Assembly: GCA_030649895.1 (NCBI GenBank)
Contig: JAUSEX010000020.1
Span: 23,109 to 87,108, forward strand
Direction of reading: 5' to 3'
Length of the DNA: 64,000 bases
Source of the DNA: Candidatus Omnitrophota bacterium
Lineage (GTDB): Bacteria; Omnitrophota; Gorgyraeia; Gorgyraeales; Gorgyraeaceae
Shown: positions 12,207 to 59,386 of the stretch, piece by piece
Numbering within the stretch: position 1 is the first letter of the stretch
How the letters are laid out: every line of letters starts with the position of its first letter
Position numbers and translations under genes: made by a program
Notes under the pieces: generated by a model
The model's database searches: none
What the model saw: the letters and a program-made list of their open reading frames with translations, nothing else
What the model was told of the DNA's origin: nothing

Positions 12207-12237
12207 GTTTAGAGTCGCCTCGATCTTGCAGGATGCC

Positions 12238-13872: not shown

Positions 13873-14922
13873 ATGGTTAAGAAAGAAGAAAAGAGAGAAG
13901 AAAAAAAGACAGTGGCGGCAAAGACTGACGATAAGCAAAAGGCGATCGAATCAACTGTTTTGCAGATAGAAAAACAGTTTGGTAAGGGGTCTATCATGCG
14001 CCTTGGGCAGGGCACTAAGTTTGACGTGGATGTTATTTCTACGGGAGCGCTGTCTTTGGATCTGGCGTTGGGCGTAGGAGGAGTACCTTACGGAAGGGTT
14101 ATTGAGATATTCGGGCCTGAGGCAGGAGGAAAAACCACGCTTACTTTAAGCATAATTTCGCAGGTTCAGAAGGCAGGGGGCGTAGCTGCTTTCATAGACG
14201 CTGAGCATGCTCTTGACCCTACATACGCAAGGAAGCTGAAAGTAAACCTTGATAATCTTTTAATATCCCAGCCGGATACGGGTGAACAGGCCCTGGACAT
14301 TGCAGATATGCTCGTGAGAAGCAATGCGGTTGATTTAATTGTAATAGATTCTGTGGCAGCCCTGGTTCCAAAAGCAGAAATAGAAGGCGAAATGGGGGAC
14401 AGACATATAGGGCTACAGGCAAGGCTTATGTCCCAGGCATTGAGGAAGCTTACGGCTATAATAGCCAAGACTCATACCTGCGTTATTTTTATCAATCAGA
14501 TAAGAGAAAAAATAGGTGTTATGTTCGGGAACCCTGAGACAACTACAGGTGGAAGGGCGCTGAAATTCTATTCTTCCGTTAGAATTGACATGAGGAACAT
14601 AGGGGCAATAAAGACAGGCGATAAGGTTATAGGTAACAGGGTCAGGGCAAAGGTTGTGAAAAATAAAGTTGCCCCGCCGTTCAGAAACGCTGAATTTGAA
14701 ATAATACACGGCGAAGGTATTTCAAGGGAAGGCAGTATGCTGGAGCTTGGCGTAGAATCCGGAGTTTTGACCAAATCCGGTTCTTCAATAAGTTTTGGAA
14801 ACGAAAAATTAGGCCAGGGCATGGAATCCGCCAGGGGGTTCCTGAAAGGTAACCCAAAATTGTCCAATGAGATAGAAAAGAAGATAAAAGAAACTCTGGC
14901 AAAGGCAGCTGAAGGAAAATAA
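13873..14922 (+). CDS. recA: Recombinase RecA
   Basis: Canonical RecA: ALDxALGVGG.[21 protein letters not shown] Walker A and [22 protein letters not shown]. Confidence 0.98.
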
Positions 14923-27594: not shown

Positions 27595-28225
27595 ATTTTG
27601 CGGGATAACGTCGGTTGAAGACCGCGACAGCGCAATAAGCGCGGGCGCTGATGCGATAGGGATTGTGTTTTTTAAAGATAGCCCTCGTTTTGTGCCATTG
27701 GAAAGAGCGGAGATAATAGTAAAGGATCTGCCGCCTTTTATAAGCGCGGTAGGCGTTTTTGTTAATGAAGATTTGAGGTTTATAGAAGAATGCGTGGAGA
27801 GGTGCAGCCTGAACGCCGTGCAGATACACGGCGATGAAGACGTTCAATATTGTTTAAAGTTTAAAGGTTTAAAATTGAGAGGCGTAAAACTAATAAAGGC
27901 TATAAGAGTCAAGGATTGGGAAAGCCTGGCAGCTATAGAAGATTGCCCCGCTGACGCTTTTATATTGGACGCATATAAAAAAGGCTTGTATGGCGGCACA
28001 GGAAAAGGCTTTGATCCTTCGCTGGCTACCATAGCAAATGAATACGGGAGAAATATTATCATATCAGGCGGGTTAAACCCTGATAATGTGTATAGTATAA
28101 TAAAGGAAGCAAAGCCTTACGGAGTGGATGTTTCCTCTGGTATTGAATCCTCTCCAGGGAAGAAAAACATAGAATTAATGGAGCGGTTCACAGTAGAAGT
28201 CAGGCTCGCAGAACAAGAAATATAA
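27578..28225 (+). CDS. trpF: Phosphoribosylanthranilate isomerase
   Basis: VKFCGITSVED...VQIHGDE...SGGLNPDNV. Overlaps trpC by 17 nt. Confidence 0.85.
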   Translation: MRVRVKFCGITSVEDRDSAISAGADAIGIVFFKDSPRFVPLERAEIIVKDLPPFISAVGVFVNEDLRFIEECVERCSLNAVQIHGDEDVQYCLKFKGLKLRGVKLIKAIRVKDWESLAAIEDCPADAFILDAYKKGLYGGTGKGFDPSLATIANEYGRNIIISGGLNPDNVYSIIKEAKPYGVDVSSGIESSPGKKNIELMERFTVEVRLAEQEI

Positions 28226-28485
28226 CCTTATCTAACGCAGTATATTAATCATACCCAAAATTGCCGGAATTCCCTCGCCGCAAACATAAATAGTCATAAT
28301 ATGGAAAAACTGGCTCGGTCAGTTCCGCCATTTGCTCGCTGTAATTTCTTGCGGACTTTTGCCGAAATTTTTCTAATGCGCCTCAGACCTGCTTGACAGG
28401 ACGAGTGACCCTTCGACAAGCTCAGGGTTCTTGGTCCCGAGCAAAGCTGGGGCGTCTTTTCGTAGGCCTAGTGGTAGGAAAGACA

Positions 28486-28513
28486 ATAAGCTGACTTGAC
28501 AAACCGCATAAGA
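28486..28513 (+). promoter_or_regulatory. Sigma-70-like promoter for the downstream nine-gene operon: TTGACA, 16 nt, TATACT
   Basis: TTGACA at 28486-28491 and TATACT at 28508-28513. Lies in a 340-nt noncoding gap after trpF and about 50 nt upstream of the GTG of the HTH gene. A second TTGACA lies near 28395. Confidence 0.35.
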
Positions 28514-28563
28514 TCATTATACTTCTTTATACTGCGACTTAAAGAGATATAAAGGGGTTTAAC

Positions 28564-28758
28564 GTGACTAAAGCCAAGCAGGTAATGACGGTTAAGGAAA
28601 TAGCGGAATATCTGGGCGTGCACCCTATGACAATATACAAGTATGTCAAGGACGGCAAGATCCCTGCTTTTAAAATAGGGACGAGCTGGCGTATTAGGAG
28701 AGATTCCATAAAGAAATGGATGGATGAGAATGAATACAAAAACCAGGGAGGTGTTTAA
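28564..28758 (+). CDS. Excisionase-family helix-turn-helix DNA-binding protein (putative transcriptional regulator)
   Basis: 64-aa protein. MTVKEIAEYLGVHPMTIYKYVKDGKIPAFKIGTSWRIRRDSI matches the MerR-superfamily excisionase-type HTH. GTG start with AAGGGG Shine-Dalgarno. The stop abuts the ATG of the next gene. Confidence 0.6.
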   Translation: MTKAKQVMTVKEIAEYLGVHPMTIYKYVKDGKIPAFKIGTSWRIRRDSIKKWMDENEYKNQGGV

Positions 28759-30054
28759 ATGTTTAAGCGGGCTGCGATTGTCGCGTTTTTATCTTTTATC
28801 TTAACGGTTTTATCTTGCAGCGCTGTTTTTGCGAATGGTTTTAAGAATGACGCGCTTTTGGACACAGAAGCTACTGGTATGGCTACTTTATTTGTGGCGC
28901 AGGCAGATTCTCCTGCGGCAGTGCAGTTTAACCCAGCCGGACTTACTCAATTAAAAGGAAATCATGCAAGGGTGGGATATACCAGCGCAATCCCAAGGAA
29001 TTTCCGTACGGATACAAGCGGCAATGATCAAAGCAGCTCGCAAATAGACAATTTTTTCATACCTAGTATTTATCTTGTAAATAACTTGAAATCTGAAAAT
29101 TGGAAATTTGGTTTAGGCGTGACATCGCCTTACGGCCTTGGGACAGACTGGGCAGATGACAGTTTTGCAAGATTTCAGACCACAGAATCCAGTTTACAGG
29201 TTTTGCAGATAAACCCGACAATTGCGTATAAATATAATAATACGATTTCTCTTGGGTTTGGGATAGATTATATAATGTCAGAGACATCGAGTCATAAAAG
29301 AATAGCGGATACTACGGGTTTAGGGGATTTTCACGCAAAAGGTAACGATGATGGTTGGGGTTATAATTTAGGACTTCTTGTTAAGCCTTCGGAAAAATAT
29401 AGCATTGGGGTTGCTTATAGAAGCAGAGTAAAGCTTACCTATAAAGGCACTATTTCTATGACTAACTTGTCTAGCGGCATATACGGGTCCGGTGGTTTAG
29501 GATATTTCCCGAATGATACTTATGTAACAGGCATGGAATCCAGGCTTACCCTGCCTCAGACTCTTGCGTTAGGTTATGCGTTCAAACCGGATCAAAAATT
29601 AACAATAGAAACCGATGCCATATGGACAGATTGGTCTAGCGTACAAGAAGATTTCGCGAAATATACTGAAGAAGGAGATGCAAATCGATTAGCTGTTCTA
29701 AATGACGGTAATCCATTGGCAAAGGACTGGAATGCAACTATGTCATATGGTATAGCTGCTAAGTATCAGGCTACTGATAAATTGGTTTTAAGGTGCGGAT
29801 ATTTATATGCGGAAACACCTGTGCCTGCTGCTAATTTTGAGCCTTCCATGGTTGACATGGATATGCACTGCGTTAGCGTGGGAGCGGGATATGCTCTGAA
29901 AAAAGACCTTACTGTTGATGCTGCGTACTTCGGAGGATTTTATAAGGATAGATATATTACAAATGACATAGCCCTTTCTAGCGGTTCTGATTTAGACGGC
30001 ATGTATGAATCGTATGTAAATGTCTTTTCAGTAAGCTTCACTTATAAATATTGA
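28759..30054 (+). CDS. FadL/OMPP1/TodX-family outer-membrane transporter for hydrophobic compounds
   Basis: Signal peptide, N-terminal hatch with the NPAGL motif, amphipathic beta-strand-rich sequence, C-terminal aromatic residues ...FTYKY typical of an OM beta-barrel. Confidence 0.7.
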   Translation: MFKRAAIVAFLSFILTVLSCSAVFANGFKNDALLDTEATGMATLFVAQADSPAAVQFNPAGLTQLKGNHARVGYTSAIPRNFRTDTSGNDQSSSQIDNFFIPSIYLVNNLKSENWKFGLGVTSPYGLGTDWADDSFARFQTTESSLQVLQINPTIAYKYNNTISLGFGIDYIMSETSSHKRIADTTGLGDFHAKGNDDGWGYNLGLLVKPSEKYSIGVAYRSRVKLTYKGTISMTNLSSGIYGSGGLGYFPNDTYVTGMESRLTLPQTLALGYAFKPDQKLTIETDAIWTDWSSVQEDFAKYTEEGDANRLAVLNDGNPLAKDWNATMSYGIAAKYQATDKLVLRCGYLYAETPVPAANFEPSMVDMDMHCVSVGAGYALKKDLTVDAAYFGGFYKDRYITNDIALSSGSDLDGMYESYVNVFSVSFTYKY

Positions 30055-30064
30055 TAATAGAATA

Positions 30065-30343
30065 ATGAAAAAAGCTAAAGATCTGAAGATAGCTGAATTA
30101 TCAAAGAAGAGGGAGAGCGTCAAGAAGTTAATAGCCGAAATCGCCAGGATGGATGCAGACAAGATAGATGAGAGCGATGGCATCAGGGATGATTTAGGCA
30201 TTGACTCCCTGATGGCAGTTGAGATGCTGGCAGCGATCGAAAAGAGATTGGGCGTTGTTATGGATGAAGCAAAGGCGTTTGACATAGTGACAGTAAAGGA
30301 TCTTATAGATCTTGTAATGGAGTGGTTTAAAAACAAAAGGTAA
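30065..30343 (+). CDS. Dedicated acyl carrier protein
   Basis: 92-aa protein with phosphopantetheine attachment motif LGIDSLMAVEM. Not the housekeeping acpP context. Confidence 0.8.
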   Translation: MKKAKDLKIAELSKKRESVKKLIAEIARMDADKIDESDGIRDDLGIDSLMAVEMLAAIEKRLGVVMDEAKAFDIVTVKDLIDLVMEWFKNKR

Positions 30344-30411
30344 GATATATAAAACCGTAATTAACCGTGTAGGTTGCGCGCGACAAACCTATGCGGTTGG
30401 GGTGGTAAAAG

Positions 30412-31839
30412 ATGAACCTAGGTACCTCGCTTCATTGGGTTTCAACTAAGATGAAGGATAAGGCATGCCTGATTGAAGGCGCCATAGAGGTATCTTATTC
30501 AGAGTTATGGAAAAACATAGAAACGCTGGCAAAAGGTTTCCTGAAAATAGGCATAAAAGAAAATGATAAAGCAGTTATAATCCTTCCTAATTGCAAAGAA
30601 TTTATTTATAGTTTCTACGGTCTTGCCAGGATAAATGCAATAAGCGTACCGCTTAATACTTACTTGACTTCTTATGAATTAGATAAGATCTTCAAGGATT
30701 GCGACCCCAAGGTTATTATCACTACATATCAGCTATATAAAAAGAAGATATCTGCTATATCGAATAAAAATATATTAATAATACTCACTGATGAATCGTT
30801 AGAGCCTGGCAAGGACGGCCTATTTGAGTTAGGGGATTTGCTGGCGAAAGGCGGAACCGGAAGATTGCCGCGCTTCAGCGCGAATAATAATCAAATAGCT
30901 ACTATTAATTACACATACCGCGGTTTAGGAGAGGCTATTGGCGCGGTGCTCACGCACGGCAATTACCATCATGGCGCGATAGGGTATCTGCGGCTTACAA
31001 AACTTGTTACAACTCAACGCGTGTTATTAATAACCCCGATGTCGCATATCTTTACTCTGGTAAGCTGCGTTATTGTGCCTTTGTTGCGCGGCGCAACAGT
31101 CGTAATAATGAAAAGCTTTATTCCAAGCCATATATTCAAGGCAATAGAAGATCATAAGATTGATTTTGTTATAGCTGTGCCTACTATTTACATATCGCTT
31201 CTTAAAAATTACAAAAAGGGCCGTTTTGATATATCCAGTCTTAAATATGGAATAACAGGCGGCAGTTATCTATCCGAAAGCCTTAATAAAGAGATCAAAG
31301 AAGAGATGGGCATAGAATTATTGCAGGGTTACGGCCTCACAGAGACAATGCCTATAATGTGCAATCCTCATTCAAGAAATAAGATGGGCTCTCTTGGCGT
31401 AGCGGGCCATGAGGTAAAAGTTAAGATTGTAGACGGCGAAATATTAATAGGCGGGCCTACAGTCATGAGAGGTTACTATAATAAGAACGGCGAGAACAAA
31501 AAATATTTAAAAGACGGATGGTTTAAGACAGGGGACATGGGCTACATAGATGAAGAAGGGTATGTTTATTTTAAGGGCCTGAAAAAAGATATTATAAAGG
31601 TAGGCGGCAATAATGTTGATTTAACTGAAGTAAAAAACGTTTTAAATTCTTTCCCGGGCGCGCGGAATGTGCGCCTGGATATAGTAGGGGATGAATTATG
31701 GGGTCACAGGATACACGCGGAAATAACGGGCCCTTTCAAAAAAGAAGTCACGGATAAAGATGTAAAGGCGTTTTGCAGCGAGAGAATGGCTTTATATAAA
31801 ATACCAAAAAGGATATTAATAAGGATGAGCCGGGGTTAA
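30412..31839 (+). CDS. Acyl-AMP / acyl-ACP synthetase (ANL adenylate-forming enzyme)
   Basis: 475-aa protein with AMP-binding motifs YTYRGLGEAIGAVLTHGN (A3-like), GYGLTE and GWFKTGDMGYIDEEGYVYFKGLKKDIIKVGG. Sits between an ACP and an alpha-oxoamine synthase. Confidence 0.75.
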   Translation: MNLGTSLHWVSTKMKDKACLIEGAIEVSYSELWKNIETLAKGFLKIGIKENDKAVIILPNCKEFIYSFYGLARINAISVPLNTYLTSYELDKIFKDCDPKVIITTYQLYKKKISAISNKNILIILTDESLEPGKDGLFELGDLLAKGGTGRLPRFSANNNQIATINYTYRGLGEAIGAVLTHGNYHHGAIGYLRLTKLVTTQRVLLITPMSHIFTLVSCVIVPLLRGATVVIMKSFIPSHIFKAIEDHKIDFVIAVPTIYISLLKNYKKGRFDISSLKYGITGGSYLSESLNKEIKEEMGIELLQGYGLTETMPIMCNPHSRNKMGSLGVAGHEVKVKIVDGEILIGGPTVMRGYYNKNGENKKYLKDGWFKTGDMGYIDEEGYVYFKGLKKDIIKVGGNNVDLTEVKNVLNSFPGARNVRLDIVGDELWGHRIHAEITGPFKKEVTDKDVKAFCSERMALYKIPKRILIRMSRG

Positions 31840-31874
31840 CCGCGTTTTATATTTAACAACCAAGAGGCATTAAT

Positions 31875-33074
31875 ATGCAAAAATCTCACGCAAATTTTAA
31901 GAACAGGGTTGATTCAGTAATTAAAAGGGTTAAATGGACAAAAGGTAAAAATTATTATTTTTATATGCGAAACCTTGAATCCCCCTCAGAGTCGCGCGTA
32001 AAGATTAATGGCAGAGAGATGATCATGCTCGGCTCCAATAATTATTTAGGATTAACAACGCATCCTGAAGTAAAAGAGGCTGCGATAAATGCGGTTAAAA
32101 AATATGGCGTAGGTTCGGGCGGAGTGAGAATTCTAAGCGGGACGTATAAACTGCACGAAGAACTGGAAAGAGAAATCGCCAAATTCAAGGGGACGGAATC
32201 AGCTATAGTATTTAATACAGGTTTTATAACAAACCTGGGCACTATCATAGCCCTTGTCAATGAAAATAGCGTGGTGATAAACGATGAGAAAAATCACGCC
32301 AGTATAGTAGACGGTTCTATTTCTTCCAGGGCGCAGATCAGAGTTTTTTTACATAATGATATGAAATATCTGGAAAAGATTTTACGTTCTTATCCTAGGA
32401 CTCAGGATAAGCTGATCATAGTGGATTCTGTTTACAGCATGGATGGCGATATAGCGAACCTGCCGGAGATACAAAAGCTTGCAAAGAAATATAACGCCAG
32501 GACGATGATCGATGAAGCGCATGCGTCAGGCGTATTAGGCAGGACCGGCAAAGGGGCTCCGGAATATTTCAATATGACAGGAAAGATAGATATAGTCATG
32601 GGCACTCTTAGCAAGGCCATGGGCGGCTTAGGAGGATTTATTGCTTCCACGGAGGATATAGTCACATATCTGAAACATGTAAGCAGAGAATTTATCTTTT
32701 CCGCGAGTTTACCGCCTGCGATTATCGCTGGAAATATAGCGGCAATTAAAGTTATCCGGAAAGAGCCGCATTTGCTGAAGCAGCTTTGGAGAAACATAAA
32801 ATATATAAAAAAAGGGCTGGCGGGATTAGGTTACGACATAGGCAATAGCCAGTCAGCTATTATACCGGTTTTAATCAGGGATGAGGTAAAGACATTTAAG
32901 ATGGCGCAGATACTGGATGAGGCGGGTATTTTCGTAAACCCGGTGGTCTTTCCTGCAGTAAAAGAATCAGAATCAAGGATCAGGATTAGCGTAATGGCCT
33001 CGCATAGTTTAGCGGACCTAACCAGGGCATTAGAGGCTTTTAAGAAAGCAGGAAAACAGATAGGGCTGATTTAA
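31875..33074 (+). CDS. PLP-dependent alpha-oxoamine synthase (BioF/KBL/serine-palmitoyltransferase/CqsA family)
   Basis: 399-aa protein: LGSNNYLGL, DEAHASGVLG, GTLSKAMGGLGGF (PLP lysine). The stop TAA is immediately followed by the ATG of the histidine kinase. Confidence 0.8.
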   Translation: MQKSHANFKNRVDSVIKRVKWTKGKNYYFYMRNLESPSESRVKINGREMIMLGSNNYLGLTTHPEVKEAAINAVKKYGVGSGGVRILSGTYKLHEELEREIAKFKGTESAIVFNTGFITNLGTIIALVNENSVVINDEKNHASIVDGSISSRAQIRVFLHNDMKYLEKILRSYPRTQDKLIIVDSVYSMDGDIANLPEIQKLAKKYNARTMIDEAHASGVLGRTGKGAPEYFNMTGKIDIVMGTLSKAMGGLGGFIASTEDIVTYLKHVSREFIFSASLPPAIIAGNIAAIKVIRKEPHLLKQLWRNIKYIKKGLAGLGYDIGNSQSAIIPVLIRDEVKTFKMAQILDEAGIFVNPVVFPAVKESESRIRISVMASHSLADLTRALEAFKKAGKQIGLI

Positions 33075-35279
33075 ATGATACAGCTACAACTAAGCAGCGT
33101 TTCTATCGCGATAATAATCAATATTCTTTTGGGGTTATTCGTCTATTTTAAAAACCCAAAGAAATGGGTCAATCTTTCTTTTGTGCTGATGACCTTTAGC
33201 GTTGCTTTGTGGAATGCAGGGGATGTTTTGATTGCATTTTCAAAAGATTCCTCGATTGCTATTATTTGGAGTAGAATTTCTTATGTAGGCGCGGTTTTTT
33301 TTCCAACATTTTCTATTCATTTCGTAGTTTCTATAATTAGAGACGTAGTGCATAAAAATTGGAAGAAAGTTCTTATTGTAACTTATGCCAGCACGATTTT
33401 TTTACTTTGTTTTATTTTTACGCCTTTCATTATTAAAGGCGTAATGCTTAAACCTTTCAAAGAAATACCCGGGCCTCTTTATTTTCTTTTTATATTATTT
33501 TTTATGTCCTGCTTTGCATACCTGTTTTATATCCTGATCAAAGCCCTTAAAAAATCCACAGGTTTAAAGAGAACGCAATTAGGATATGTATTATTAGGAT
33601 ATTTCACAGGCGCCATCGCCGGATTGATTTATTTTTTAATATTGCAGGGATTTAATATACCGCCTATTCATTACATAGTTGAAATAGGCTATACCCTGGT
33701 AGTGTCCTACGCTATTATAAAATACAGGCTAATGAATATAAGATCAGCAGTTACCCGCGCCGGGGTATTTGCTTTTGTTTATACGGTAGTATTGGCTATT
33801 CCTTTTATAGTGGGGGGTATAATAAAGACGCATATTTCCAGCGTATCTTCTAATTGGTGGATAATACCGCTTTTGACAGGTATTGTCCTGGCCAGCGCAG
33901 GCCCTTTTATTTATATAGGGTTACAGAGAAGATTCGAATCCAGGTTAAGAGCTATGGAGTTCAAGTCGCACGAGGCGTTGAGGCGGCTTTCGCATAATAT
34001 GCTCAGATTCACTAACCTGAATGTTCTTTTAAGGCTGATGGTGCATTATTTAGTTAAAGTTTTGAAACTTAGATTCGCAGCTATATATTTATTTGATAAA
34101 CAGAACGAAAGATATATATTAAGCAGCGTCTGGTATAGCGGTGAAAACGTTGAATTGCCGCAAGAATTTGAGGTAAATAGCTATCTTGTGGAATATATGC
34201 ATTTAAAGAAACTGCCTGTAGTAGCAGAAGAGCTATCGCTTTATGCGCCTGTATCCTTGGCCTCTAAGATAGGGAAGCTTTCTTCTGATTTATCAGCTAT
34301 CAAGATAAATACAGCGATCCCGTCATTTTTAAGAAATAATCTCATAGGTTTCTTGATATTATCTGACAGAAGGAGGAAAAATATACCATTTACCCAGGAG
34401 GACCTCAATTTTTTGATGGTCCTTTCTAACGAGGCGGCGCTTGCTATTGAAAACGCGCAGTTTCATCAAAAGGAGGTTTCAACGCTTGTTGAAAAATCCA
34501 AAAGAGAAGCTCTTGCGGATATGGCTCCCGGGGCGTCCCATCAGTTTAATAACCGCCTTGCTTCCATAAGTTCTTCAGTGGAGCTTTTACTTTTCAAAAT
34601 GGAGAATTTTAATATAGAAGCTCATTATGACGAGAAGACCAGGGCCTTGCTTAAGGATACAAAAGAAACCCTGGAATTAATAGATAACGAGGTCTATAAA
34701 GGCAAGGAAATAACGTCCGCAATCTTAAAAAGGGCTAAGGCAAAAGTGGAGTTTCAGGAGTTTGACCTGCCAACCCTTATTGAAAATACATACAAGCTTG
34801 TCATGATAAGCCGTTCCCGTTCAGGCCTGGATAGAGCAAAAGAGCTGAAATTTAATATAGTCTGTCTTAATAAGATACCTGATATATTCGCAAGCGAAGC
34901 GCTGCTGCAGGATGTTTTTTATAACCTTATAGATAACGCTTATGACGCCATACAGGACAAGGCAAGGCTTATGAGCCAGGGAGGAAACTCTTTTTATCAG
35001 GGCGATATCGAGGTTTCGCTTAGTCAAGAAGGCAATATTATAGTGGCCAAGGTGAAGGACAACGGGATAGGCCTTACAAAAGAAAACCATAGAAAGCTTT
35101 TCACGCCTTATTTTACCACCAAGGCTACGTCTAATAAGGGAAGCGGGCTGGGTTTGTGCGTAATAAGGGATTTTATAGAGATGCACAAAGGCGCGATTGC
35201 CTGCGATTCGGAATACGATAAAGGCGCCACCTTTACCATAAGATTACCGATAAAGAAGGAGAAAATCCATGGAACCTAA
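33075..35279 (+). CDS. Membrane-bound sensor histidine kinase (7-TM N-terminal domain, GAF, HisKA, HATPase_c)
   Basis: About 290 aa of multi-pass TM helices, a GAF-like region, H-box ASHQFNNRLASI, and ATP-binding G-boxes DNGIGL...GSGLGLCV. Confidence 0.8.
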   Translation: MIQLQLSSVSIAIIINILLGLFVYFKNPKKWVNLSFVLMTFSVALWNAGDVLIAFSKDSSIAIIWSRISYVGAVFFPTFSIHFVVSIIRDVVHKNWKKVLIVTYASTIFLLCFIFTPFIIKGVMLKPFKEIPGPLYFLFILFFMSCFAYLFYILIKALKKSTGLKRTQLGYVLLGYFTGAIAGLIYFLILQGFNIPPIHYIVEIGYTLVVSYAIIKYRLMNIRSAVTRAGVFAFVYTVVLAIPFIVGGIIKTHISSVSSNWWIIPLLTGIVLASAGPFIYIGLQRRFESRLRAMEFKSHEALRRLSHNMLRFTNLNVLLRLMVHYLVKVLKLRFAAIYLFDKQNERYILSSVWYSGENVELPQEFEVNSYLVEYMHLKKLPVVAEELSLYAPVSLASKIGKLSSDLSAIKINTAIPSFLRNNLIGFLILSDRRRKNIPFTQEDLNFLMVLSNEAALAIENAQFHQKEVSTLVEKSKREALADMAPGASHQFNNRLASISSSVELLLFKMENFNIEAHYDEKTRALLKDTKETLELIDNEVYKGKEITSAILKRAKAKVEFQEFDLPTLIENTYKLVMISRSRSGLDRAKELKFNIVCLNKIPDIFASEALLQDVFYNLIDNAYDAIQDKARLMSQGGNSFYQGDIEVSLSQEGNIIVAKVKDNGIGLTKENHRKLFTPYFTTKATSNKGSGLGLCVIRDFIEMHKGAIACDSEYDKGATFTIRLPIKKEKIHGT

Positions 35280-35652
35280 TCCGGGCCGCAAGGTCCTGCT
35301 AATCGACGACGAAGAAACTTTATTAAAAAACATAGGGGAATTTTTAAAGGTCGGGGGATATTCTGTTTTTACATCTTCCAATAGTACGGATGGGCTGGAG
35401 TTGCTGAGAAACCATGGCCCTGATTTATTGCTTCTGGACCTGCATCTAAAAGAAGGGCTTACGGGCATGCAGGTCCTGAGGGCCGCAAAGATGCTGAAGC
35501 CTGATTTAAAGGTTGTTATATTGTCAGGATTCGGCGAAGAAGAGGATACGAAAAAGAGCTGTATTTCACTTGGCGCAAGCGCTTTTTTAGGAAAACCCAC
35601 GTCTCTGAGAAGCTTGTCTGAGATTATAAAGAATCTTCTGGAGGTAAAATAA
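35269..35652 (+). CDS. Stand-alone response-regulator receiver (CheY-like)
   Basis: KVLLIDDEETLL...DLLLLDLHLKEGLTGMQVL...KVVILSG with conserved D, D, T and K of REC. Overlaps the HK stop by 11 nt. Confidence 0.85.
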   Translation: MEPNPGRKVLLIDDEETLLKNIGEFLKVGGYSVFTSSNSTDGLELLRNHGPDLLLLDLHLKEGLTGMQVLRAAKMLKPDLKVVILSGFGEEEDTKKSCISLGASAFLGKPTSLRSLSEIIKNLLEVK

Positions 35653-35892
35653 ATGCAAGGAAAATTAAGAGAAGAATTTCATGGTATAAACAATTTACTT
35701 AACAAAATAACTACTCAGGCAGGCATGGCTAAGTATCATCTGGAAGAAAAAGGGTTTGATCTTGCAAAGATCGAAGAGGAGAAAGAGCGGCTCATAAAAG
35801 TCCTGGATAGCATGGAAGAGAACGCCATGAATATAGGGGAGTTGTTAAGGAACCTGCGCAAAGGCATCGAAACAGGGAGATCCTGGGAATGA
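35653..35892 (+). CDS. Small helical protein, possible Hpt-like phosphotransfer protein
   Basis: 79-aa predicted all-helical protein with one His in EEFHGINNLLNKITTQAGMA (HxxxN..L..K...G, Hpt-like). Start abuts the REC stop, and its stop overlaps the next REC gene by 4 nt. Assignment is inferential. Confidence 0.3.
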   Translation: MQGKLREEFHGINNLLNKITTQAGMAKYHLEEKGFDLAKIEEEKERLIKVLDSMEENAMNIGELLRNLRKGIETGRSWE

Positions 35893-37835
35893 GTAAGAAG
35901 ATTTTGATAGTGGATGACGAGATAGACATTACCTTGGTTTTGAAAGAATTTTTTATATCGAAGGGCTATGAGGCGCTTGCTGCGTTTAACGGCAGGGAAG
36001 CGGTAGGCTTTTTAAATCAGCCTGGCATAGATCTTATTTTATTGGATATGCAGATGCCGGATATGAGCGGGTTAGAGGTATTAAAGGAAGCGAGAAAAAT
36101 ACACAAAGACACGAAGATAATAGTATTGACGGGTTTTTCAGAGGAATATAAAGAAGAAGCGGAAAAGATAGGATGTGATGCGTTTCTGACAAAACCATTT
36201 TCCATAAGAACGCTTATAACTGCAGCAGAGTCTGTCCTGACCGGTAAAGAAGAAGGTAGAAGCGATATAGCGACTCTTATGGAAGATGATAATGTATTAG
36301 CGAAGGCGAAACTCCTTTTTATTGAGCCAAACGAAATAACATACGGCTCGAAATTATCGTATTTCCGGGATTTGAAACATTGCAAAGGCAGGTATCGGGT
36401 AGCAGCGGCTTTCACGGAAAACGAGGCTATGAAAAAGCTGGAAGAATTTAAACCTGACATTGTATTGAGCGATATAGGCGTATTCAGGTTATATAAGCTG
36501 AGAGATAAGATTTTAAAGATGCAAAGCCCTGCAAAAGATATAATATTATACGGCCTTTCCCCTGACGCCAAGGATTCGTTGAAAAACGGCTATGCCTCGT
36601 TTGTCGGGGGCCTGTTTGATCCGATAACTGCTATGGTTAGCCCGGAAGAAATGGATAGGCTGGGAAAAATTGTCCGCAGGGCAGCGATGGAACATGGTTT
36701 GTATAAAAGTCAGGAAACAGAAACCGAGCAATTTTACAACTATCATAAAGTCCTCCTGGAAGCCAGTAAAGGCATGGTGCTTATAACTGACACAAGCAAG
36801 TTGTTGTATCTTATTGTATACGTAGTGAAAAAACATATGAAGCTAAAAAGCGCGTGCATATTTTATTATGATGAACAGGACAAGAGTTTTGTCCTAACGT
36901 GTAAGCGCGGAGAAAGCGATGCGCAAAGAGGCTACAGGATAGGCGATTCGCACCCTTTTATAAAATGGTTAAAGGACAGGCAAAGCGGGTTTTCATATAA
37001 TAAAGACGATTTTATGAATCTGCCTGATGTCGGAAACGAACTGGAGAAGCTTGGCTGCGCAGCGTGCGTGCCGAGTTTTAATAAAGACAAGCTTATAGGA
37101 TTTTTGATTTTGGGCAATAAACTGTCGGGTGATTCGTACGCGAGGGAGGAGCTGGAGTTATTGTTAACCATTTCTAACGAAGCCGCTATTGTAATAGAAA
37201 ACGCTAAAAATGTCTTTGAACTGCAGAAATTAAGGGAAAAAGAGAAAGAAAATTATTTTCAGACAATTCTCGCCTTAGCCAGGACAGTGGATGAAAAAGA
37301 CGCTTATACGCGTGGCCATTTGGATGAGGTTACCAGGTATGGGGTGATAGTGGCGGAAGAACTGACGGAATCTTTAAAAATAAATATAGACATGGAAGAA
37401 TTGAAGACAGCGCTTCTTCTTCACGATATAGGAAAGATTGGCGTGCCTGACGCGCTGCTTCATAAAATATCCAGCCTGACGCCCGAAGAGTTTGAAATAA
37501 TGAAACAGCATTCTGCAATAGGCGCAAGGATTATCGAGCCTATAGAGAAACTGAAAAAGATAGGCAGGATCATAAAACATCACCAGGAAAAATATAACGG
37601 CACAGGTTACCCCGACGGACTTAAAGGCGAGGATATCCCCCTTGAGTCCAGGATAGTGGCTGTGGTGGATGCGTATCACGCAATGATATCGGACAGGCCT
37701 TACAGAAAGGCCCTGCCCGAAGATACGGCCTTGAATGAGCTCAGGAGCTGCAGAGGCACGCAATTCGACCCTTTGATAGTAGATGCGTTTCTCAGGGCTT
37801 ATGAAAAAGGTAAAATAGTAAAGCGTAAAATTTAG
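35889..37835 (+). CDS. REC-(REC-like)-GAF-HD-GYP c-di-GMP phosphodiesterase-type response regulator (RpfG-like)
   Basis: N-terminal REC (ILIVDDEIDI...DLILLDMQMPDMSGLEVL), a second degenerate receiver, a GAF-like domain, and a C-terminal HD-GYP domain (LLHDIGKIGVPD ... HHQEKYNGTGYPDGL). Confidence 0.85.
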   Translation: MSKKILIVDDEIDITLVLKEFFISKGYEALAAFNGREAVGFLNQPGIDLILLDMQMPDMSGLEVLKEARKIHKDTKIIVLTGFSEEYKEEAEKIGCDAFLTKPFSIRTLITAAESVLTGKEEGRSDIATLMEDDNVLAKAKLLFIEPNEITYGSKLSYFRDLKHCKGRYRVAAAFTENEAMKKLEEFKPDIVLSDIGVFRLYKLRDKILKMQSPAKDIILYGLSPDAKDSLKNGYASFVGGLFDPITAMVSPEEMDRLGKIVRRAAMEHGLYKSQETETEQFYNYHKVLLEASKGMVLITDTSKLLYLIVYVVKKHMKLKSACIFYYDEQDKSFVLTCKRGESDAQRGYRIGDSHPFIKWLKDRQSGFSYNKDDFMNLPDVGNELEKLGCAACVPSFNKDKLIGFLILGNKLSGDSYAREELELLLTISNEAAIVIENAKNVFELQKLREKEKENYFQTILALARTVDEKDAYTRGHLDEVTRYGVIVAEELTESLKINIDMEELKTALLLHDIGKIGVPDALLHKISSLTPEEFEIMKQHSAIGARIIEPIEKLKKIGRIIKHHQEKYNGTGYPDGLKGEDIPLESRIVAVVDAYHAMISDRPYRKALPEDTALNELRSCRGTQFDPLIVDAFLRAYEKGKIVKRKI

Positions 37836-37844
37836 GAGATACTT

Positions 37845-39053
37845 ATGAAATATATTGTTCTCGTTGGAGACGGAATGGGCGACAGGCCCATTGAAGATCT
37901 TGGCGGCAAGACCGTGCTTGAGGCGGCAAAGATTCCTAATATGAATTTTATAGCTGAGAATGGCAAGGTGGGGCTTACAAACATGATCCCGTCCAGGATG
38001 TTGCCTGCAAGCGACGTGGCGAATCTTTCTATACTCGGATATAACCCTAAAAAATACTACACGGGACGCGGTCCGCTGGAAGCGGCGAATATGGGCATAG
38101 ACCTGAAGGAGGACGAGGTGGCGTTCAGGTGTAACCTTGTGACTATTTCAGGCGAGAGAATGGCGGATTACAGCGCAGGCCACATATCAAATGAGGAAGC
38201 AAAGTCTATAATAAAGGAGCTGAATTTCAAGCTGGGCTCTGATGATATAAAATTTTATCCCGGCGTAAGCTACAGGCATCTTATGATTTTTAAATGCAAA
38301 GATAAAAGTGTCCAGGAAGGGTTTGTGAATGCAAAGTGCACTCCGCCTCACGATATAGCGGGAAAGATAATAAACAGGTTCCTTCCCGCGAGGACTCCTC
38401 AGGCAGAGATACTAAAAAGATTGATGGATGAATCTAAAAAGATTTTAGCAGACCATGATGTGAACAGGGTAAGGCTTGATTTAAAAGAAAATCCCGCTAA
38501 CATGATATGGTTGTGGGGCCAGGGCGTAAGGTCTTTTATGCCGAAATTTTCAAAGCTTTATCACGTGGAAGGTTCTATTATTTCAGCGGTTGACCTTATA
38601 AAAGGCATAGGGAGGATTATCGGGCTGGATGTTATAGACGTGCCAGGGGCTACCGGATATTACGATACGAATTATTTAGGCAAGGCAGAGTATGCCATTG
38701 ATTCTCTGAAACATAAGGATTTTGTGTTTGTTCATGTGGAGGCCCCTGACGAGGCTGGCCATAACGGGGATCTGAGAGAAAAGATTTACAGCGTAGAAAA
38801 ATTTGATAAGTTCGTAGTGGGGACCATACTGAGCCATTTCAAGGCCTCTAAAGAAGAATTCAGGATAATGGTTTTATATGACCACGCTACGCCGGTAGCG
38901 TTAAAAACCCATTCCCGGGACCATGTTTGTTTCGCTATGTACGGTACTGATATTGAACAAGGGGCAATAAAGCATTTCAACGAAAAAGAAGCCCGCCTGA
39001 CAAAATTCCGCATAGATAAGGGCCACGAGTTAATGGAATTCTTCATAAAATAA
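37845..39053 (+). CDS. apgM: Cofactor-independent phosphoglycerate mutase, archaeal type
   Basis: MKYIVLVGDGMGDRP...AKIPNMNF...HVEAPDEAGHNGD metalloenzyme motifs of ApgM/PhosphMutase. Confidence 0.8.
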   Translation: MKYIVLVGDGMGDRPIEDLGGKTVLEAAKIPNMNFIAENGKVGLTNMIPSRMLPASDVANLSILGYNPKKYYTGRGPLEAANMGIDLKEDEVAFRCNLVTISGERMADYSAGHISNEEAKSIIKELNFKLGSDDIKFYPGVSYRHLMIFKCKDKSVQEGFVNAKCTPPHDIAGKIINRFLPARTPQAEILKRLMDESKKILADHDVNRVRLDLKENPANMIWLWGQGVRSFMPKFSKLYHVEGSIISAVDLIKGIGRIIGLDVIDVPGATGYYDTNYLGKAEYAIDSLKHKDFVFVHVEAPDEAGHNGDLREKIYSVEKFDKFVVGTILSHFKASKEEFRIMVLYDHATPVALKTHSRDHVCFAMYGTDIEQGAIKHFNEKEARLTKFRIDKGHELMEFFIK

Positions 39054-39104
39054 CCTGATTTTACAATTTGCGCCAGCGCTGTTCGTAAAGCCAGGATACT
39101 GTCT

Positions 39105-39170
39105 GAAAATTTTGCTGTCCGCTCAAATGCGCCTAAGGCCCAAGCCGGCTTGAGCGAATGAACGTATTTT
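39105..39170. repeat. REP-like element, copy 5, diverged, upstream of lysC
   Basis: GGCTTGAGCGAATGAACGTATTTTCGAAAGCC has inner arms like the other copies. Confidence 0.4.
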
Positions 39171-39280
39171 CGAAAGCCTGCCGGAACTGGCTATTACGTA
39201 ATATGTTATCTGGCTATTCAAATGGCAATTTCAAATATTTTAATAGATTATTTTTGGCATATGTGGTAATATTTATCGAT

Positions 39281-40504
39281 ATGGGAAAACGTTTGATTGT
39301 TCAAAAATATGGCGGCAGTTCTGTAGCGAATACAGACAGGATAAAAAGTGTAGCGAACCGCATCGCAAAATACAAAAAGCAAGGCTATAATGTGGTGGTG
39401 ATAGTTTCCGCTTTAGGCGATACTACCGACGAATTGTTGGAACTTGCGGGACAGATAACGGATAAGCCAAGCGATAGAGAATTAGATATGCTCATATCTA
39501 CTGGCGAACAGGTGTCTGTGGCGCTTCTGGCAATGGCGCTACATAAGATAGGGGTTGATGCAATATCTTTTACAGGCCCTCAGGTAGGCATAATAACGGA
39601 CCGCACTCACACAAAGGCTAAGATCCTGAAGATAAGCGCTGACAGGATCAAGGGGCAGATCAATAAGGGCAGGGTTGTTATAGTGGCGGGCTTTCAGGGT
39701 ATGAACGCTGATCAGGAGATCACTACTCTTGGCAGGGGCGGTTCGGACCTTACCGCTGTCGCTATTGCTACAACGCTAAATGCTGACATGTGCGAGATAT
39801 ATACTGACGTTGAAGGTGTCTATACAGCTGATCCCAGGATCGTAAAAGACGCGAAAAAACTTTCCGTTATCAGTTATGAAGAGATGCTTGAGCTGGCTTC
39901 TCTGGGCGCGCAGGTTATGCAGGCCAGGTCCATGGAGGTCGCGAAAAAATATTCAGTATCGCTGCATATACGGTCAAGTTTTACGAATGAAGAAGGGACG
40001 ATTATTTCAAAGGAGGTTAAGGCGATGGAAGATGTTCTTGTGAGCGGGGTGACTGCAAATAAAGGCGAGGCAAAGGTGACTATCTGCGATGTCCCTGACA
40101 GGCCCGGAATAGCAGCGAAAATATTCACGGATATAGCAAGGCATGATATAAACGTTGATATGATAATTCAGAATATAAGCAGAAAAGGTTACACGGATCT
40201 CTCTTTTACGGTACCCGTGGCTGAGCTTAATAAGGCGAAAGATATGATGTCTAAAATAGTGAGATCCGTGAAGGCGAAAGGCGTGGTGTATAATAATGAG
40301 ATTGCCAAGGTTTCTATAGTCGGCGTAGGCATGAAGACGCATTCCGGGGTCGCGGCGAAGATGTTCGGGGCACTGGCCTCAAAAAAGATAAACATAGACA
40401 TGATTTCAACCTCTGAAATCAAGATATCGTGCGTGATAAATAAAAGATATGCGGATAAAGCGGTGATCGCGCTGCATAAGGCGTTTGGATTGGGGAAGAA
40501 ATAG
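39281..40504 (+). CDS. lysC: Aspartate kinase (monofunctional, two ACT domains)
   Basis: LIVQKYGGSSV...VVVIVSALGDTTDEL and tandem C-terminal ACT domains. The ORF track starts 41 codons earlier in the same frame (39158); I call ATG 39281. Confidence 0.9.
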   Translation: MGKRLIVQKYGGSSVANTDRIKSVANRIAKYKKQGYNVVVIVSALGDTTDELLELAGQITDKPSDRELDMLISTGEQVSVALLAMALHKIGVDAISFTGPQVGIITDRTHTKAKILKISADRIKGQINKGRVVIVAGFQGMNADQEITTLGRGGSDLTAVAIATTLNADMCEIYTDVEGVYTADPRIVKDAKKLSVISYEEMLELASLGAQVMQARSMEVAKKYSVSLHIRSSFTNEEGTIISKEVKAMEDVLVSGVTANKGEAKVTICDVPDRPGIAAKIFTDIARHDINVDMIIQNISRKGYTDLSFTVPVAELNKAKDMMSKIVRSVKAKGVVYNNEIAKVSIVGVGMKTHSGVAAKMFGALASKKINIDMISTSEIKISCVINKRYADKAVIALHKAFGLGKK

Positions 40505-51195: not shown

Positions 51196-51996
51196 ATGGG
51201 CGACATAGGTGAGTTAAAAAAGATTTTAAATAGAACGGGAAAGGTGATAGTGGCGTTTTCCGGCGGGGTAGACAGCAGCTTTTTGCTTAAGATGGCAAAG
51301 GATACTTTGCAGGATGGGGATGTTCTGGCCGTGACAGCTGTTTCAGAGACATATACCGGCTCTGAGCTTAAGCAGGCAAAGAGGTTCGCAAAAAAGCTAG
51401 GCGTAAGGCATAAAATAATTCATACAAATGAACTGAAAGATAAAAATTTTACAAAAAATCCTGAAAACAGGTGTTATTACTGCAAAAAAGAATTATTTGA
51501 AGAACTGGACAGGATTAAAAAAGAAAAATGTTTTAACTACGTTTTGGATGCGTCAAATACCGATGACATAAGAGATTACAGGCCCGGAAGCAGGGCAAAA
51601 AAAGAATTTGGAGTCAGGAGCCCTCTCATAGAAGCGGGTTTTTCAAAAGACGAGATACGGAAATTTTCCAGAAGATTAAAGCTGGATACCGCAGATATGC
51701 CTTCAATGGCGTGCCTGGCGTCCAGGTTTCCGTATGGCGAAAAGATAAATAAAAAAGCATTAAGAAAAATAGAGGCAGCCGAAGGTTTCATAAAGAGCCA
51801 GGGCGTGCAGCAGGTAAGGGTACGCTGTCATAGTAATATAGCCAGGATTGAGGTAGAAAAGCAAAGCATAAAAAGGTTTGTGAATAGTAAGTTTTGTGAT
51901 AAAATAACAAAGCGTTTAAAACAGCTCGGGTTTAAATACATAGCTTTAGACTTAGAAGGATACAGGACGGGAAGTCTTAATGAAGTGTTAAAGTAG
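51196..51996 (+). CDS. LarE-family PP-loop ATP pyrophosphatase (TIGR00268 / sulfur-transferase-like)
   Basis: VIVAFSGGVDSSFLL PP-loop, conserved Cys (MACLASRFPYG), about 265 aa. Confidence 0.6.
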   Translation: MGDIGELKKILNRTGKVIVAFSGGVDSSFLLKMAKDTLQDGDVLAVTAVSETYTGSELKQAKRFAKKLGVRHKIIHTNELKDKNFTKNPENRCYYCKKELFEELDRIKKEKCFNYVLDASNTDDIRDYRPGSRAKKEFGVRSPLIEAGFSKDEIRKFSRRLKLDTADMPSMACLASRFPYGEKINKKALRKIEAAEGFIKSQGVQQVRVRCHSNIARIEVEKQSIKRFVNSKFCDKITKRLKQLGFKYIALDLEGYRTGSLNEVLK

Positions 51997-52085
51997 GTTC
52001 TTCGGCTGCTCCTTATTCAGTCGCAGTTTTAGGATCGAAATTTTTTCAAAAATTTCAGAAATTTGAATAAAATTTTGAAGCAAGA

Positions 52086-52145
52086 AGGTCCTTCGGCAGC
52101 TAAAATGTTCGCTTCGCTCACATTTTTGACGCTGCCTCAGGATCA
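52086..52145 (+). repeat. tRNA-leader repeat (GGTCCTTCGGCAGCTAAAATG..GCTTCGCTCACATTTTTGACGCTGCCTCAGGATC), copy B, upstream of tRNA(CAU). A half-copy lies at 52015-52055.
   Basis: Shared with 59111-59170 and 59732-59790. Contains the AGCTAAAATG/CATTTT..GCT hairpin. A TTGACG hexamer lies 33 nt before the tRNA. Confidence 0.7.
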
Positions 52146-52163
52146 AATCTGCTTCGCAGATTT

Positions 52164-52240
52164 GGCGGCGTAGCTCAGCCTGGCAGAGCAGTCGGCTCAT
52201 ACCCGGCGTGTCACTGGTTCAAATCCAGTCGCCGCTACCA
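52164..52240 (+). tRNA. tRNA with CAU anticodon: elongator tRNA-Met or, after lysidinylation, tRNA-Ile2. The CCA end is encoded.
   Basis: Cloverleaf: acceptor GGCGGCG/CGCCGCU, D-arm GCUC-AGCCUGGCAG-AGC, anticodon stem GUCGG/CCGGC with loop CUCAUAC, T-arm GGUUCAAAUCC. Lacks the three consecutive G-C pairs of initiator tRNA. Confidence 0.85.
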
Positions 52241-59190: not shown

Positions 59191-59276
<86 letters not shown>

Positions 59277-59386
59277 CTGTTGTTTTAAATATTTGTGGGA
59301 CATATAAAGGATTCGAAGAGAGTCCTGATAGATGCGACTAACAGGAGCATCTGTTTATCAGGACGAGTGGCCGACCCGAAGCGAAG

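Follow-up and report, generated by a model that had tools for sequence, protein, structure and literature searches.

Does a compact gene block that places a lipid-type biosynthetic cassette beside a two-component relay form one system, and what would that system do? The block in question lies in a stretch of 64,000 nucleotides (nt), here called the window, from Candidatus Omnitrophota bacterium (GenBank assembly GCA_030649895.1, contig JAUSEX010000020.1, positions 23,109 to 87,108 of the forward strand). The source is an Omnitrophota metagenome-assembled genome, and all comparisons given here are computational, from metagenome assemblies. Conserved gene order, together with joint exchange of a sensor module and the enzymes encoded next to it, indicates that the biosynthetic and signalling halves of the block belong together. 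Our preferred reading is that the cassette makes a lipid-derived signal, which a matched sensor detects and passes through a His-Asp-His-Asp relay to an HD-GYP phosphodiesterase; we consider the chances of this reading to be even.

The block consists of nine open reading frames (ORFs) on the + strand (28564-37835), all of which are present as judged from the ORF list and Pfam/NCBIfam searches. Together with a promoter candidate and the two parts of the kinase gene, they are, in window coordinates:

28496-28523, + strand: sigma-70-like promoter candidate, TTGACA-16 nt-TATACT, 11/12 consensus, ~40 nt 5' of the helix-turn-helix (HTH) gene
28564-28758, + strand: HTH protein, 64 amino acids (aa); PF12728 72.6 bits, TIGR01764 68.5 bits
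28759-30054, + strand: FadL/TodX outer-membrane channel; PF03349 214.5 bits; N-terminal signal-like sequence
30065-30343, + strand: acyl carrier protein (ACP), 92 aa; PF00550 56.4 bits; DSL site, Ser48
30412-31839, + strand: AMP-forming fatty-acid ligase; PF00501 219 bits
31875-33074, + strand: pyridoxal phosphate (PLP)-dependent alpha-oxoamine synthase (AOS), 399 aa; PF00155 205.7 bits
33075-35279, + strand: histidine kinase; PF16927, GAF and PF02518
33075-33750, + strand: kinase codons 1-225, HisKA_7TM membrane sensor module; PF16927 at residues 10-222
33751-35279, + strand: conserved kinase part with two further transmembrane helices, GAF, dimerization and histidine phosphotransfer (DHp) region and HATPase; GAF and PF02518
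35269-35652, + strand: stand-alone receiver (REC), 127 aa; PF00072 73.7 bits
35653-35892, + strand: predicted DHp-like helical hairpin, 79 aa, with His10; no Pfam/NCBIfam match, hhalign match to kinase DHp
35889-37835, + strand: REC-linker-GAF-HD-GYP protein, 648 aa; PF00072 99.6 bits, PF13487 128.9 bits, GAF

The original prediction, made from the sequence without database searches, described nine same-strand genes with almost no gaps, and all ORFs and every junction that it listed are correct. The HTH stop adjoins the FadL ATG, the AOS stop adjoins the kinase ATG and the REC stop adjoins the ATG of the 79-aa protein; the kinase and REC genes overlap by 11 nt, the genes for the 79-aa protein and REC-GAF-HD-GYP by 4 nt. 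Its domain assignments, other than that of a histidine-containing phosphotransfer (Hpt) domain, were confirmed by Pfam (PF12728, PF03349, PF00550, PF00501, PF00155, PF02518, PF00072 and PF13487). An identical copy of the block is present on an independent assembly, and the kinase matches an NCBI Omnitrophota protein, encoded on a 96-kb contig, at 100% identity.

Is the synthase tied to the kinase in other genomes as well? Metagenomes were scanned with the kinase alignment, and the genes of related loci (L numbers) were labelled against the window proteins. In all examined relatives with AOS identity of at least 64% whose contig continues downstream (L002, L003, L005, L007, L017, L018, L024 and L038), the AOS gene lies directly upstream of a HisKA_7TM-GAF kinase gene. 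Identity to the window AOS is 81% in L002, 72-79% in L005, L007, L017, L018 and L024, and 64-70% in L003 and L038, where a FabF-type ketoacyl-ACP synthase (KAS) and ACP stand in place of FadL and ligase. The arrangement extends to L036 (AOS identity 54%), in which an AOS fused to a PilZ domain lies between a FadL gene and a 7TM kinase gene, directly upstream of the latter. This kinase, 977 aa in length, carries two tandem HisKA_7TM modules, and genes for an NtrC-type regulator and a REC-HD-GYP protein lie downstream of it. Two AOS homologs that lack a PilZ fusion, at 53% and 49% identity, have no kinase nearby; Atribacteria are the source of one. L004 (Thermotaleaceae, AOS identity 43%), one of three loci with AOS in the genome-collection scan, is also devoid of the kinase.

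Several of the nearest AOS relatives outside the core group (64-89% identity) are such PilZ-AOS fusions, with the c-di-GMP (cyclic diguanylate)-binding PilZ domain at the N-terminus. They are 53-59% identical to the window AOS (L036 8001-9728, P0174, P0175, P0179, P0180, P0183 and P0188), and P0180 originates from Candidatus Desantisbacteria. Because these fusions exist, one of them beside a 7TM kinase and a REC-HD-GYP gene, the AOS clade appears to be tied to c-di-GMP control. As a separate observation, the AOS homolog in L039 (1-7923; 53% identity, no kinase nearby) is located beside huge ORFs of at least 2467 and 1437 residues with no Pfam match.

What happens at the same site in related genomes? 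Between trpF and apgM, different enzyme sets are found in front of the kinase:

Type A, trpF-apgM slot: HTH-FadL-ACP-ligase-AOS-kinase (window, L005, L017 and L018; also L002 and L007, contigs cut upstream)
Type B, trpF-apgM slot: HTH-FadL'-ACP-ligase-thioester reductase-B12 radical SAM-kinase (L013, L015, L021, L009, L026 and L016)
Type C, trpF-apgM slot: ligase-B12 radical SAM-AOS-kinase (L024)

The type B reductase belongs to TIGR01746/NAD_binding_4, and its radical SAM enzyme is nearest to HpnJ/BchE/PhpK. Outside this slot, genes found upstream of the same kinase family encode ACP with radical SAM, a RaSEA-like radical SAM with an unknown protein, aldehyde dehydrogenase, methyltransferase and another reductase. 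The surroundings do not follow these differences. TrpD and ApgM are 85-95% identical whatever the cassette type (window, L005, L013, L015, L018 and L021), flanking DNA of related genomes is ~80-90% identical, and the ligase, REC, 79-aa and HD-GYP genes compare across types at ~72-84% in DNA and 78-91% in protein. For the ligase, REC, TrpD and ApgM, no split by cassette type is seen.

The kinase itself is a mosaic. Its sensor module differs strongly between loci with different enzymes, while the rest of the protein is conserved:

Window (A) versus L013 (B): sensor 28% identity, rest of kinase 90%
L018 (A) versus L015 (B): sensor 29%, rest of kinase 93%
L011 versus L028: sensor 29%, rest of kinase 77%

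Elsewhere in the block, the window and L013 share 91% (REC), 84% (ligase) and 85% (HD-GYP) protein identity. In DNA comparison with three type B loci, homology extends unbroken over the trp genes, across promoter and HTH and over the ligase (30412-31825, 78-81%). It is absent over 31826-33750, that is over AOS and kinase codons 1-225, restarts at 33751-33753 and runs to apgM at 72-83%. This restart falls where the Pfam 7TM match ends, at residue 222. Comparison of L018 with L015 gives the same picture: flanks are 87-90% identical, and homology is lost over FadL and over AOS with kinase codons 1-266.

Sensor sequences group according to the enzymes encoded upstream:

Among types A and C: 49-74% identity
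Among type B: 36-50%
Two loci with RaSEA-like radical SAM and unknown protein (L007 second copy, L023): 59%
Between types: 21-35%

Type-specific hidden Markov models (HMMs) of the sensor separate the types (333-360 versus 48-78 bits). According to these models, sensors carried by distant kinase backbones still follow the enzyme set. L028, with thioester reductase upstream and a kinase core of 41% identity, scores 199 bits with the type B HMM and 56 with type A, and the first sensor of L036, which follows PilZ-AOS, scores 122 bits with type A and 33 with type B.

A natural exchange within one genome may be preserved in L007, where two kinase paralogs are located 9 kb apart (2882-5092 and 11857-14088). 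Over 1652 nt at the 3' side, reaching beyond the stop codon, they show 11 mismatches (99.3% identity), and behind each paralog lies a copy of a short intergenic element. Their first ~640 nt, encoding the sensor, are unrelated (28% identity), and different enzymes are encoded upstream. Because of the 11 mismatches, the paralogs are not a simple assembly duplication. This structure points to a recent conversion or duplication of the gene in which the sensor was swapped, and two inputs would here converge on one relay.

The outer-membrane channel also splits by cassette type, although the ACP and ligase genes, both conserved, separate it from AOS. FadL proteins are 81-88% identical among type A loci and 47-49% identical to those of type B in equally related genomes. 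In DNA, the window FadL gene shows 66.6% identity to L013, and no homology or just a 100-nt stretch to L015 and L021. The FadL of L009, a more distant type B locus, represents a third variant, with 44% identity to the remaining type B copies and 42% to those of type A. On the contrary, ligase identity amounts to 64-84% over both cassette types, with 79-84% between the window and close type B loci and 72-77% within type A.

These patterns suggest that tailoring enzyme(s), sensor module and FadL are exchanged as a unit, and that ligase, ACP, kinase core, relay and HD-GYP protein constitute a common chassis. Since ligase sequence is independent of cassette type, the types would diverge in their chemistry after ACP loading; we infer from this that the product, not an imported substrate, is matched to channel and sensor. 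As to the original prediction, the treatment of the biosynthetic and signalling halves as one system is supported by the preserved AOS-kinase adjacency and by sensor exchange together with the enzymes, and the same observations contradict its fallback, in which the two-component genes have nothing to do with the cassette beside them. Its expectation that the block be conserved in related genomes holds for the AOS-kinase linkage, ligase, REC, 79-aa protein and HD-GYP; it fails for the AOS as a fixed component, because other enzymes replace it.

Which product could the synthase make? The protein belongs to the alpha-oxoamine synthase superfamily (PF00155; BioF/KBL/SPT/ALAS group, where SPT is serine palmitoyltransferase), with the fold-type I PLP domain, Schiff-base lysine and D-x-A-H. 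Its motifs are intact: SNNYLG at residue 54, DEAHA at 213 and TLSKA at 244. Placement within the superfamily was made by HMM and PDB score rankings, not by a reference tree. The PDB matches are Sphingobacterium SPT (357 bits) and Thermus thermophilus broad-specificity AOS (339 bits), then KBL (~270 bits), Sphingomonas SPT (~263 bits) and CqsA (117.6 bits). The best NCBIfam models are SPT of CFB type (NF047600; 464.5 versus cutoff 640) and TIGR01825 (443.6 versus 535). Two other SPT models, NF047599 (360.9 versus 500) and NF047603 (305.3 versus 670), are missed as well, so that SPT is the best-scoring characterised family and yet stays under every threshold.

A housekeeping BioF or KBL identity was considered and rejected. 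KBL (NF005394) reaches 416.4 against a cutoff of 460 and BioF (TIGR00858) 400 against 426.45, both also under the SPT-type score, and no bioA, bioD, bioB or tdh gene is found nearby. AOS homologs are listed as 8-amino-7-oxononanoate synthase or glycine C-acetyltransferase in some public sources. The autoinducer synthase identity of CqsA/LqsA type was rejected too, with the CqsA-type model NF005526 at 212.3 against a cutoff of 428 and CqsA far below SPT among solved structures; the CqsA-like character suggested in the original prediction is thereby withdrawn. On these rankings the AOS is a separate clade nearest to SPT and Thermus AOS, and not a CqsA relative. Genes for 3-ketosphinganine reductase and ceramide synthase are missing from the window block and from all of the 10 or more type A loci.

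The carrier and the ligase also depart from housekeeping families. The ACP scores under every housekeeping AcpP cutoff in NCBIfam. The best NCBIfam match of the ligase is a long-chain-fatty-acid-CoA ligase subfamily, with 298 bits versus a cutoff of 476. Dedicated pairs of ACP and acyl-ACP synthetase (AcpR/AasR) feed SPT in Rhodobacteria (PMC9386255), and by analogy with AasR/AcpR the ligase presumably loads the neighbouring ACP.

HisKA_7TM domains are widespread in bacteria and archaea. The kinase of the block is of this kind, with PF16927 at 65.4 bits (gathering threshold 28.6) over residues 10-222 and HATPase_c at 79.6 bits. Hydropathy of the sensor shows six strong helices and one weaker, and the H-box, SHQFNNRL, contains the phospho-acceptor His489. 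Structure search gave no solved-structure relatives of the 7TM sensor. In the portions of the literature available, HisKA_7TM is listed merely as a sensor domain, with no ligand mentioned.

How could the kinase be connected to the HD-GYP protein? The stand-alone REC, in which the acidic pocket, Asp and Lys are legible, is encoded directly after the kinase in nearly all related loci. Next comes the 79-aa protein, which has no Pfam or NCBIfam match. The original prediction took it for a possible Hpt domain. This candidate was rejected, since PF01627 is absent in nine family members even at E up to 10, where only coiled-coil noise is matched, and the protein resembles the DHp hairpin of the kinase itself. 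The family profile matches kinase-family DHp in hhalign with a probability of 87% (E 3.7e-6, 63 columns over both helices), His10 being aligned on the phospho-accepting His of the kinase. AlphaFold2 predicts a two-helix hairpin (predicted local distance difference test, pLDDT, 88), and PDB phmmer search retrieves designed helical bundles only. The motif [F/V]HxxNNxLNKI, including its His, is invariant in 15 distinct loci, where the protein is always encoded between the stand-alone REC and the REC-(GAF)-HD-GYP gene. Exhaustive search for the family gave 18 representative clusters, including P0135, where the 79-aa protein forms the N-terminal part of a fusion with REC-GAF-HD-GYP; L021 may have a fusion of this kind too. 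We infer that the 79-aa protein is a DHp-like hairpin and propose it as a histidine phosphotransferase.

A plausible and the most economical reading of this gene set is a relay from kinase His to REC Asp, 79-aa protein His and again REC Asp. Because the 79-aa protein matches DHp, such a relay would be closer to Spo0F/Spo0B than to a split RpfC. Of the proposal that RpfC is split into three proteins feeding an RpfG-like HD-GYP, the His-Asp-His-Asp order into an RpfG-like REC-HD-GYP protein remains plausible; the split is an analogy and not homology, the third module is not Hpt, and RpfF is missing, as no RpfF-type crotonase-family gene was detected in the block by Pfam.

The last protein of the block combines REC and HD-GYP as RpfG does, with an extra GAF domain and a linker. 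Both HDIGK and HHQEKYNGTGYP are present, so that HD and HHx7GYP are intact. Its nearest solved structures are Persephonella HD-GYP 4mcw (146 bits) and Vibrio cGAMP (cyclic GMP-AMP) phosphodiesterase 5z7c (124 bits), and for this reason the hydrolysed nucleotide could be c-di-GMP or 3'3'-cGAMP. The protein is encoded by one gene in the window, L009, L013, L015 and L018, and by two genes (REC-linker and GAF-HD-GYP), split at the same place, in L002 (4252-6203), L005 (12891-14845), L007 (6249-8222), L024, L026 and L033. The linker, residues ~120-290 (36250-36760), has the receiver-like pattern LLFIEPNE ... PDIVLSDIG and may be a degenerate pseudo-receiver; with E = 0.11 to PF00072, a second receiver was not established. 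As an observation on related loci, a 500-aa REC-PP-binding-REC protein, a response regulator with an acyl/peptidyl carrier domain, is encoded downstream of related kinase-REC pairs in L028 (12400-13902) and L011 (13043-14542). A 149-aa helical protein precedes it, in the position of the 79-aa protein.

Taken step by step, the preferred circuit would work as follows. The AMP-ligase would activate a fatty acid and transfer it to the dedicated ACP. The AOS would condense the acyl-ACP with a small amino acid to give a long-chain alpha-amino-ketone, a class that includes 3-oxosphinganine and amino-CAI-1. Being hydrophobic, the product would partition into membranes and might cross the outer membrane through the matched FadL channel; an effect of FadL on extracellular long-chain acyl-homoserine lactone signals is described (PMC9938287). 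The seven-helix sensor of the kinase encoded directly downstream would detect the product within the membrane. Phosphate would then pass from the kinase to the stand-alone REC, to His10 of the 79-aa protein and to the receiver of REC-GAF-HD-GYP, where phosphorylation would change hydrolysis of c-di-GMP or possibly 3'3'-cGAMP.

How does this circuit compare with known systems? The membrane kinase CqsS responds to a ligand made by CqsA, itself an AOS, and the specificities of synthase and receptor co-vary (PMC3285556, PMC3376566). As in CqsA/CqsS (Vibrio CAI-1) and LqsA/LqsS/LqsR (Legionella LAI-1), an AOS gene lies here beside a polytopic membrane histidine kinase, which in those systems detects a lipid-like product in the membrane. 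Cqs and Lqs also feed several receptors into one relay, which resembles the two L007 paralogs with near-identical cores. Unlike in Cqs, the AOS falls outside the CqsA clade, is replaceable by other enzymes and is accompanied by a dedicated ACP and ligase, so that acyl-ACP and not acyl-CoA is its probable substrate. The sensor is annotated as HisKA_7TM followed by GAF, whereas CqsS has a six-helix sensor, and the output, instead of LuxU/LuxO, is an HD-GYP protein reached via separate REC and DHp-like proteins.

With the Rpf/DSF system of Xanthomonas (RpfF, RpfB, RpfC, RpfG), the block shares an acyl ligase in the cluster and would share a multi-step His-Asp-His-Asp relay to REC-HD-GYP; the fatty-acid-derived signal and its membrane kinase are shared as proposed. 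It differs in the missing RpfF-type crotonase, in relay modules that are separate proteins, in a third module that resembles DHp and not Hpt, and in the extra GAF and linker of the output protein. The clustering of dedicated ACP, AMP-ligase and SPT-like AOS recalls the sphingolipid entry module SPT, AcpR and AasR of Caulobacter and other Rhodobacteria (PMC9386255). That module is set apart by the AOS scores under SPT cutoffs, by the absence of reductase and ceramide synthase genes from the locus, by the tight link to a sensor kinase and by interchangeability with the reductase/radical-SAM cassette.

In the order of relay components (kinase, stand-alone receiver, DHp-type hairpin phosphotransferase, receiver-bearing output), the block is similar to KinA-Spo0F-Spo0B-Spo0A of Bacillus. 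Unlike Spo0B, the 79-aa protein is a hairpin only, without a C-terminal domain, and neither PDB phmmer nor the profile search of representatives gave a Spo0B sequence match; unlike Spo0A, the output is enzymatic and not a transcription factor. Finally, in staphylococcal agrBDC and Bacillus comQXP, signal genes and the sensor part of the receptor are exchanged together, and the kinase core and regulator are conserved. The mosaic boundaries inside our kinase gene are reminiscent of these specificity groups. Those systems use peptide signals and vary within species, in contrast to the acyl-ACP-based chemistry found here and to an exchange that is between species, because the compared genomes differ by ~10-20% in flanking DNA.

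Several points weigh against the signal circuit. The evidence for it consists of sequence and synteny from metagenomes, and SPT, to which the AOS is closest, serves membrane-lipid synthesis. Enzymes and sensor are adjacent; one recombination between conserved anchors would move both, interacting or not. FadL is a surface protein that may diversify under phage or predation pressure, and L009 has its third variant. The KAS-ACP-AOS loci L003 and L038 have sensors just 27-32% identical to type A despite their 64-70% AOS identity; because these loci have a sensor type of their own, the sensor does not track AOS alone. In the relay, the DHp assignment rests on a single profile-profile match of 87% probability, HMMER search with the 79-aa profile against 1.8 billion representatives matched no kinases, and fold searches, which cannot discriminate a two-helix hairpin, were uninformative. 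The same genes could serve the envelope instead. The cassette would then make a structural lipid (type A a sphingoid base or aminolipid, type B a derivative of fatty aldehyde or alcohol), and the sensor would monitor its amount or the membrane state and tune c-di-GMP-dependent envelope or adhesion functions, with no cell-cell communication. This fits the best AOS scores, which are to bacterial serine palmitoyltransferases, and the fact that ACP, acyl-ACP synthetase and SPT form the known sphingolipid entry module (PMC9386255). L012, a distant kinase-family member, lies among genes for PlsC-type acyltransferase, monogalactosyldiacylglycerol synthase and lipid A acyltransferase, the PilZ-AOS fusions suggest that the lipid is an output of c-di-GMP control, and co-variation of sensor and enzyme is explained equally well. 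Yet none of the 10 or more type A loci encodes the reductase or ceramide synthase of sphingolipid synthesis, and replacement of AOS by unrelated chemistry in related genomes is unexpected if the lipid is essential. Moreover, an outer-membrane channel of an uptake family splits by type as well, and the output is a second-messenger enzyme, not a regulator of lipid genes. We regard the structural role as the main rival to the signal circuit, though an unlikely one.

A lipid of host or prey origin might be the ligand as well: FadL would import it, the seven-helix sensor would trigger a c-di-GMP switch such as attachment, and ligase, ACP and tailoring enzymes would convert the lipid for the cell's own use. 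FadL-family channels are importers (PMC7728783), ligase and ACP would trap free fatty acids in the manner of AasR/AcpR (PMC9386255), and channel and sensor vary together. On import, however, the ligase would act first, yet it is type-independent (79-84% between types versus 72-77% within A), and neither FadL nor ligase is part of the cassettes KAS-ACP-AOS-kinase and ACP-radical SAM-kinase; this origin of the ligand seems to us distinctly improbable. Least credible of all, with hardly any probability left to it, is a housekeeping AOS of BioF or KBL kind next to two-component genes that are adjacent through genome compactness. Public annotations of homologs as 8-amino-7-oxononanoate synthase and glycine C-acetyltransferase, BioF and KBL scores of 400 and 416 bits and the dense one-strand packing of the whole window speak for it. 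It is opposed by scores under the cutoffs and under the SPT-type score, by the lack of bioA, bioD, bioB and tdh nearby, by related genomes without AOS at the trpF-apgM site, by AOS-kinase adjacency down to 54% identity across different contexts and by the recombination boundary inside the kinase at the edge of the sensor domain. Judged by these comparisons, mere neighbourhood is effectively excluded.

Where would transcription of the block begin and end? The sigma-70-like site of the original prediction exists, although at 28496-28523, ~10 nt away from the position 28486-28513 given there. It is the best promoter consensus match within 28100-39300 and lies at the start of 28495-28763, where DNA is 79-84% identical in related loci of both cassette types. 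In a scan of the 11-kb region, promoter-like sites were not enriched over chance (29 found versus 29.1 expected). The promoter/terminator scan gave no terminator-like site between the REC-GAF-HD-GYP gene and apgM, 10 nt downstream, and nearly the whole 64-kb window is encoded on the + strand. Since site counts equal chance, a terminator is missing before apgM and the window is one-stranded, the ends of the operon are not settable from sequence; treating the nine genes as one operon is reasonable, though unproven. The HTH protein encoded at the start of the block, excisionase/MerR-like and presumably a DNA-binding regulator, is 87-91% identical in close type A and B loci and 70% in L009, and is also present in the distant loci L003 and L012.

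The block is flanked by trpD-trpC-trpF on one side and by apgM, aspartate kinase and cimA on the other. Rfam and tRNA scans detected no riboswitch or RNA element near it, and repeat search found no cassette-flanking repeats of mobile-element kind. Further downstream in the window, a low-GC stretch without long ORFs follows tRNA-Tyr (59191-62700) and may be a small integrated island. It contains a GIY-YIG-like ORF (59295-59732) and a putative HicB/HicA-like pair (60219-60843), read from translations alone. An 82-nt direct repeat, 83% identical (52086-52167 and 59731-59812), and a 45-nt inverted repeat (51995-52039 and 59435-59479) both adjoin the two tRNA genes, tRNA-Met and tRNA-Tyr.

Individual parts of the block are each of known kinds. 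What appears to be new is their combination, the DHp-only phosphotransferase and the exchangeable unit of enzyme, sensor and channel. The original prediction held the combination to be undescribed, and full-text literature searches (Omnitrophota quorum sensing; HisKA_7TM; oxoamine synthase with histidine kinase and HD-GYP) indeed gave no description of such a system. If the signal circuit is real, its chemistry (acyl-ACP-derived amino-ketones, aldehydes or alcohols) and its wiring (a DHp-only phosphotransferase into HD-GYP) are combined in no described system. It would also provide the first candidate ligand class for HisKA_7TM. Direct control of an oxoamine synthase by c-di-GMP, to which the PilZ-AOS fusions point, is to our knowledge unreported. 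Natural swaps of synthase, sensor and channel represent ready-made specificity pairs that are testable in heterologous hosts, and the swapped units could become orthogonal lipid-sensing modules.

Omnitrophota are abundant, uncultured and very small bacteria, whose behaviour is known from genomes only. As a tentative generalisation, to which we give somewhat less than an even chance, Omnitrophota and probably neighbouring candidate phyla may use a hitherto unrecognised, strongly modular family of lipid autoinducer systems. The signal-specificity unit swapped between genomes would comprise FadL, the seven-helix sensor and a set of enzymes that tailor acyl-ACP, among them oxoamine synthase, thioester reductase and B12 radical SAM. 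It would be plugged into a conserved chassis of kinase core, receiver, DHp-like phosphotransferase and HD-GYP, with c-di-GMP feeding back on synthesis where PilZ-AOS fusions occur. If the signal circuit holds, the locus would represent a clear candidate signal-receptor system in Omnitrophota.

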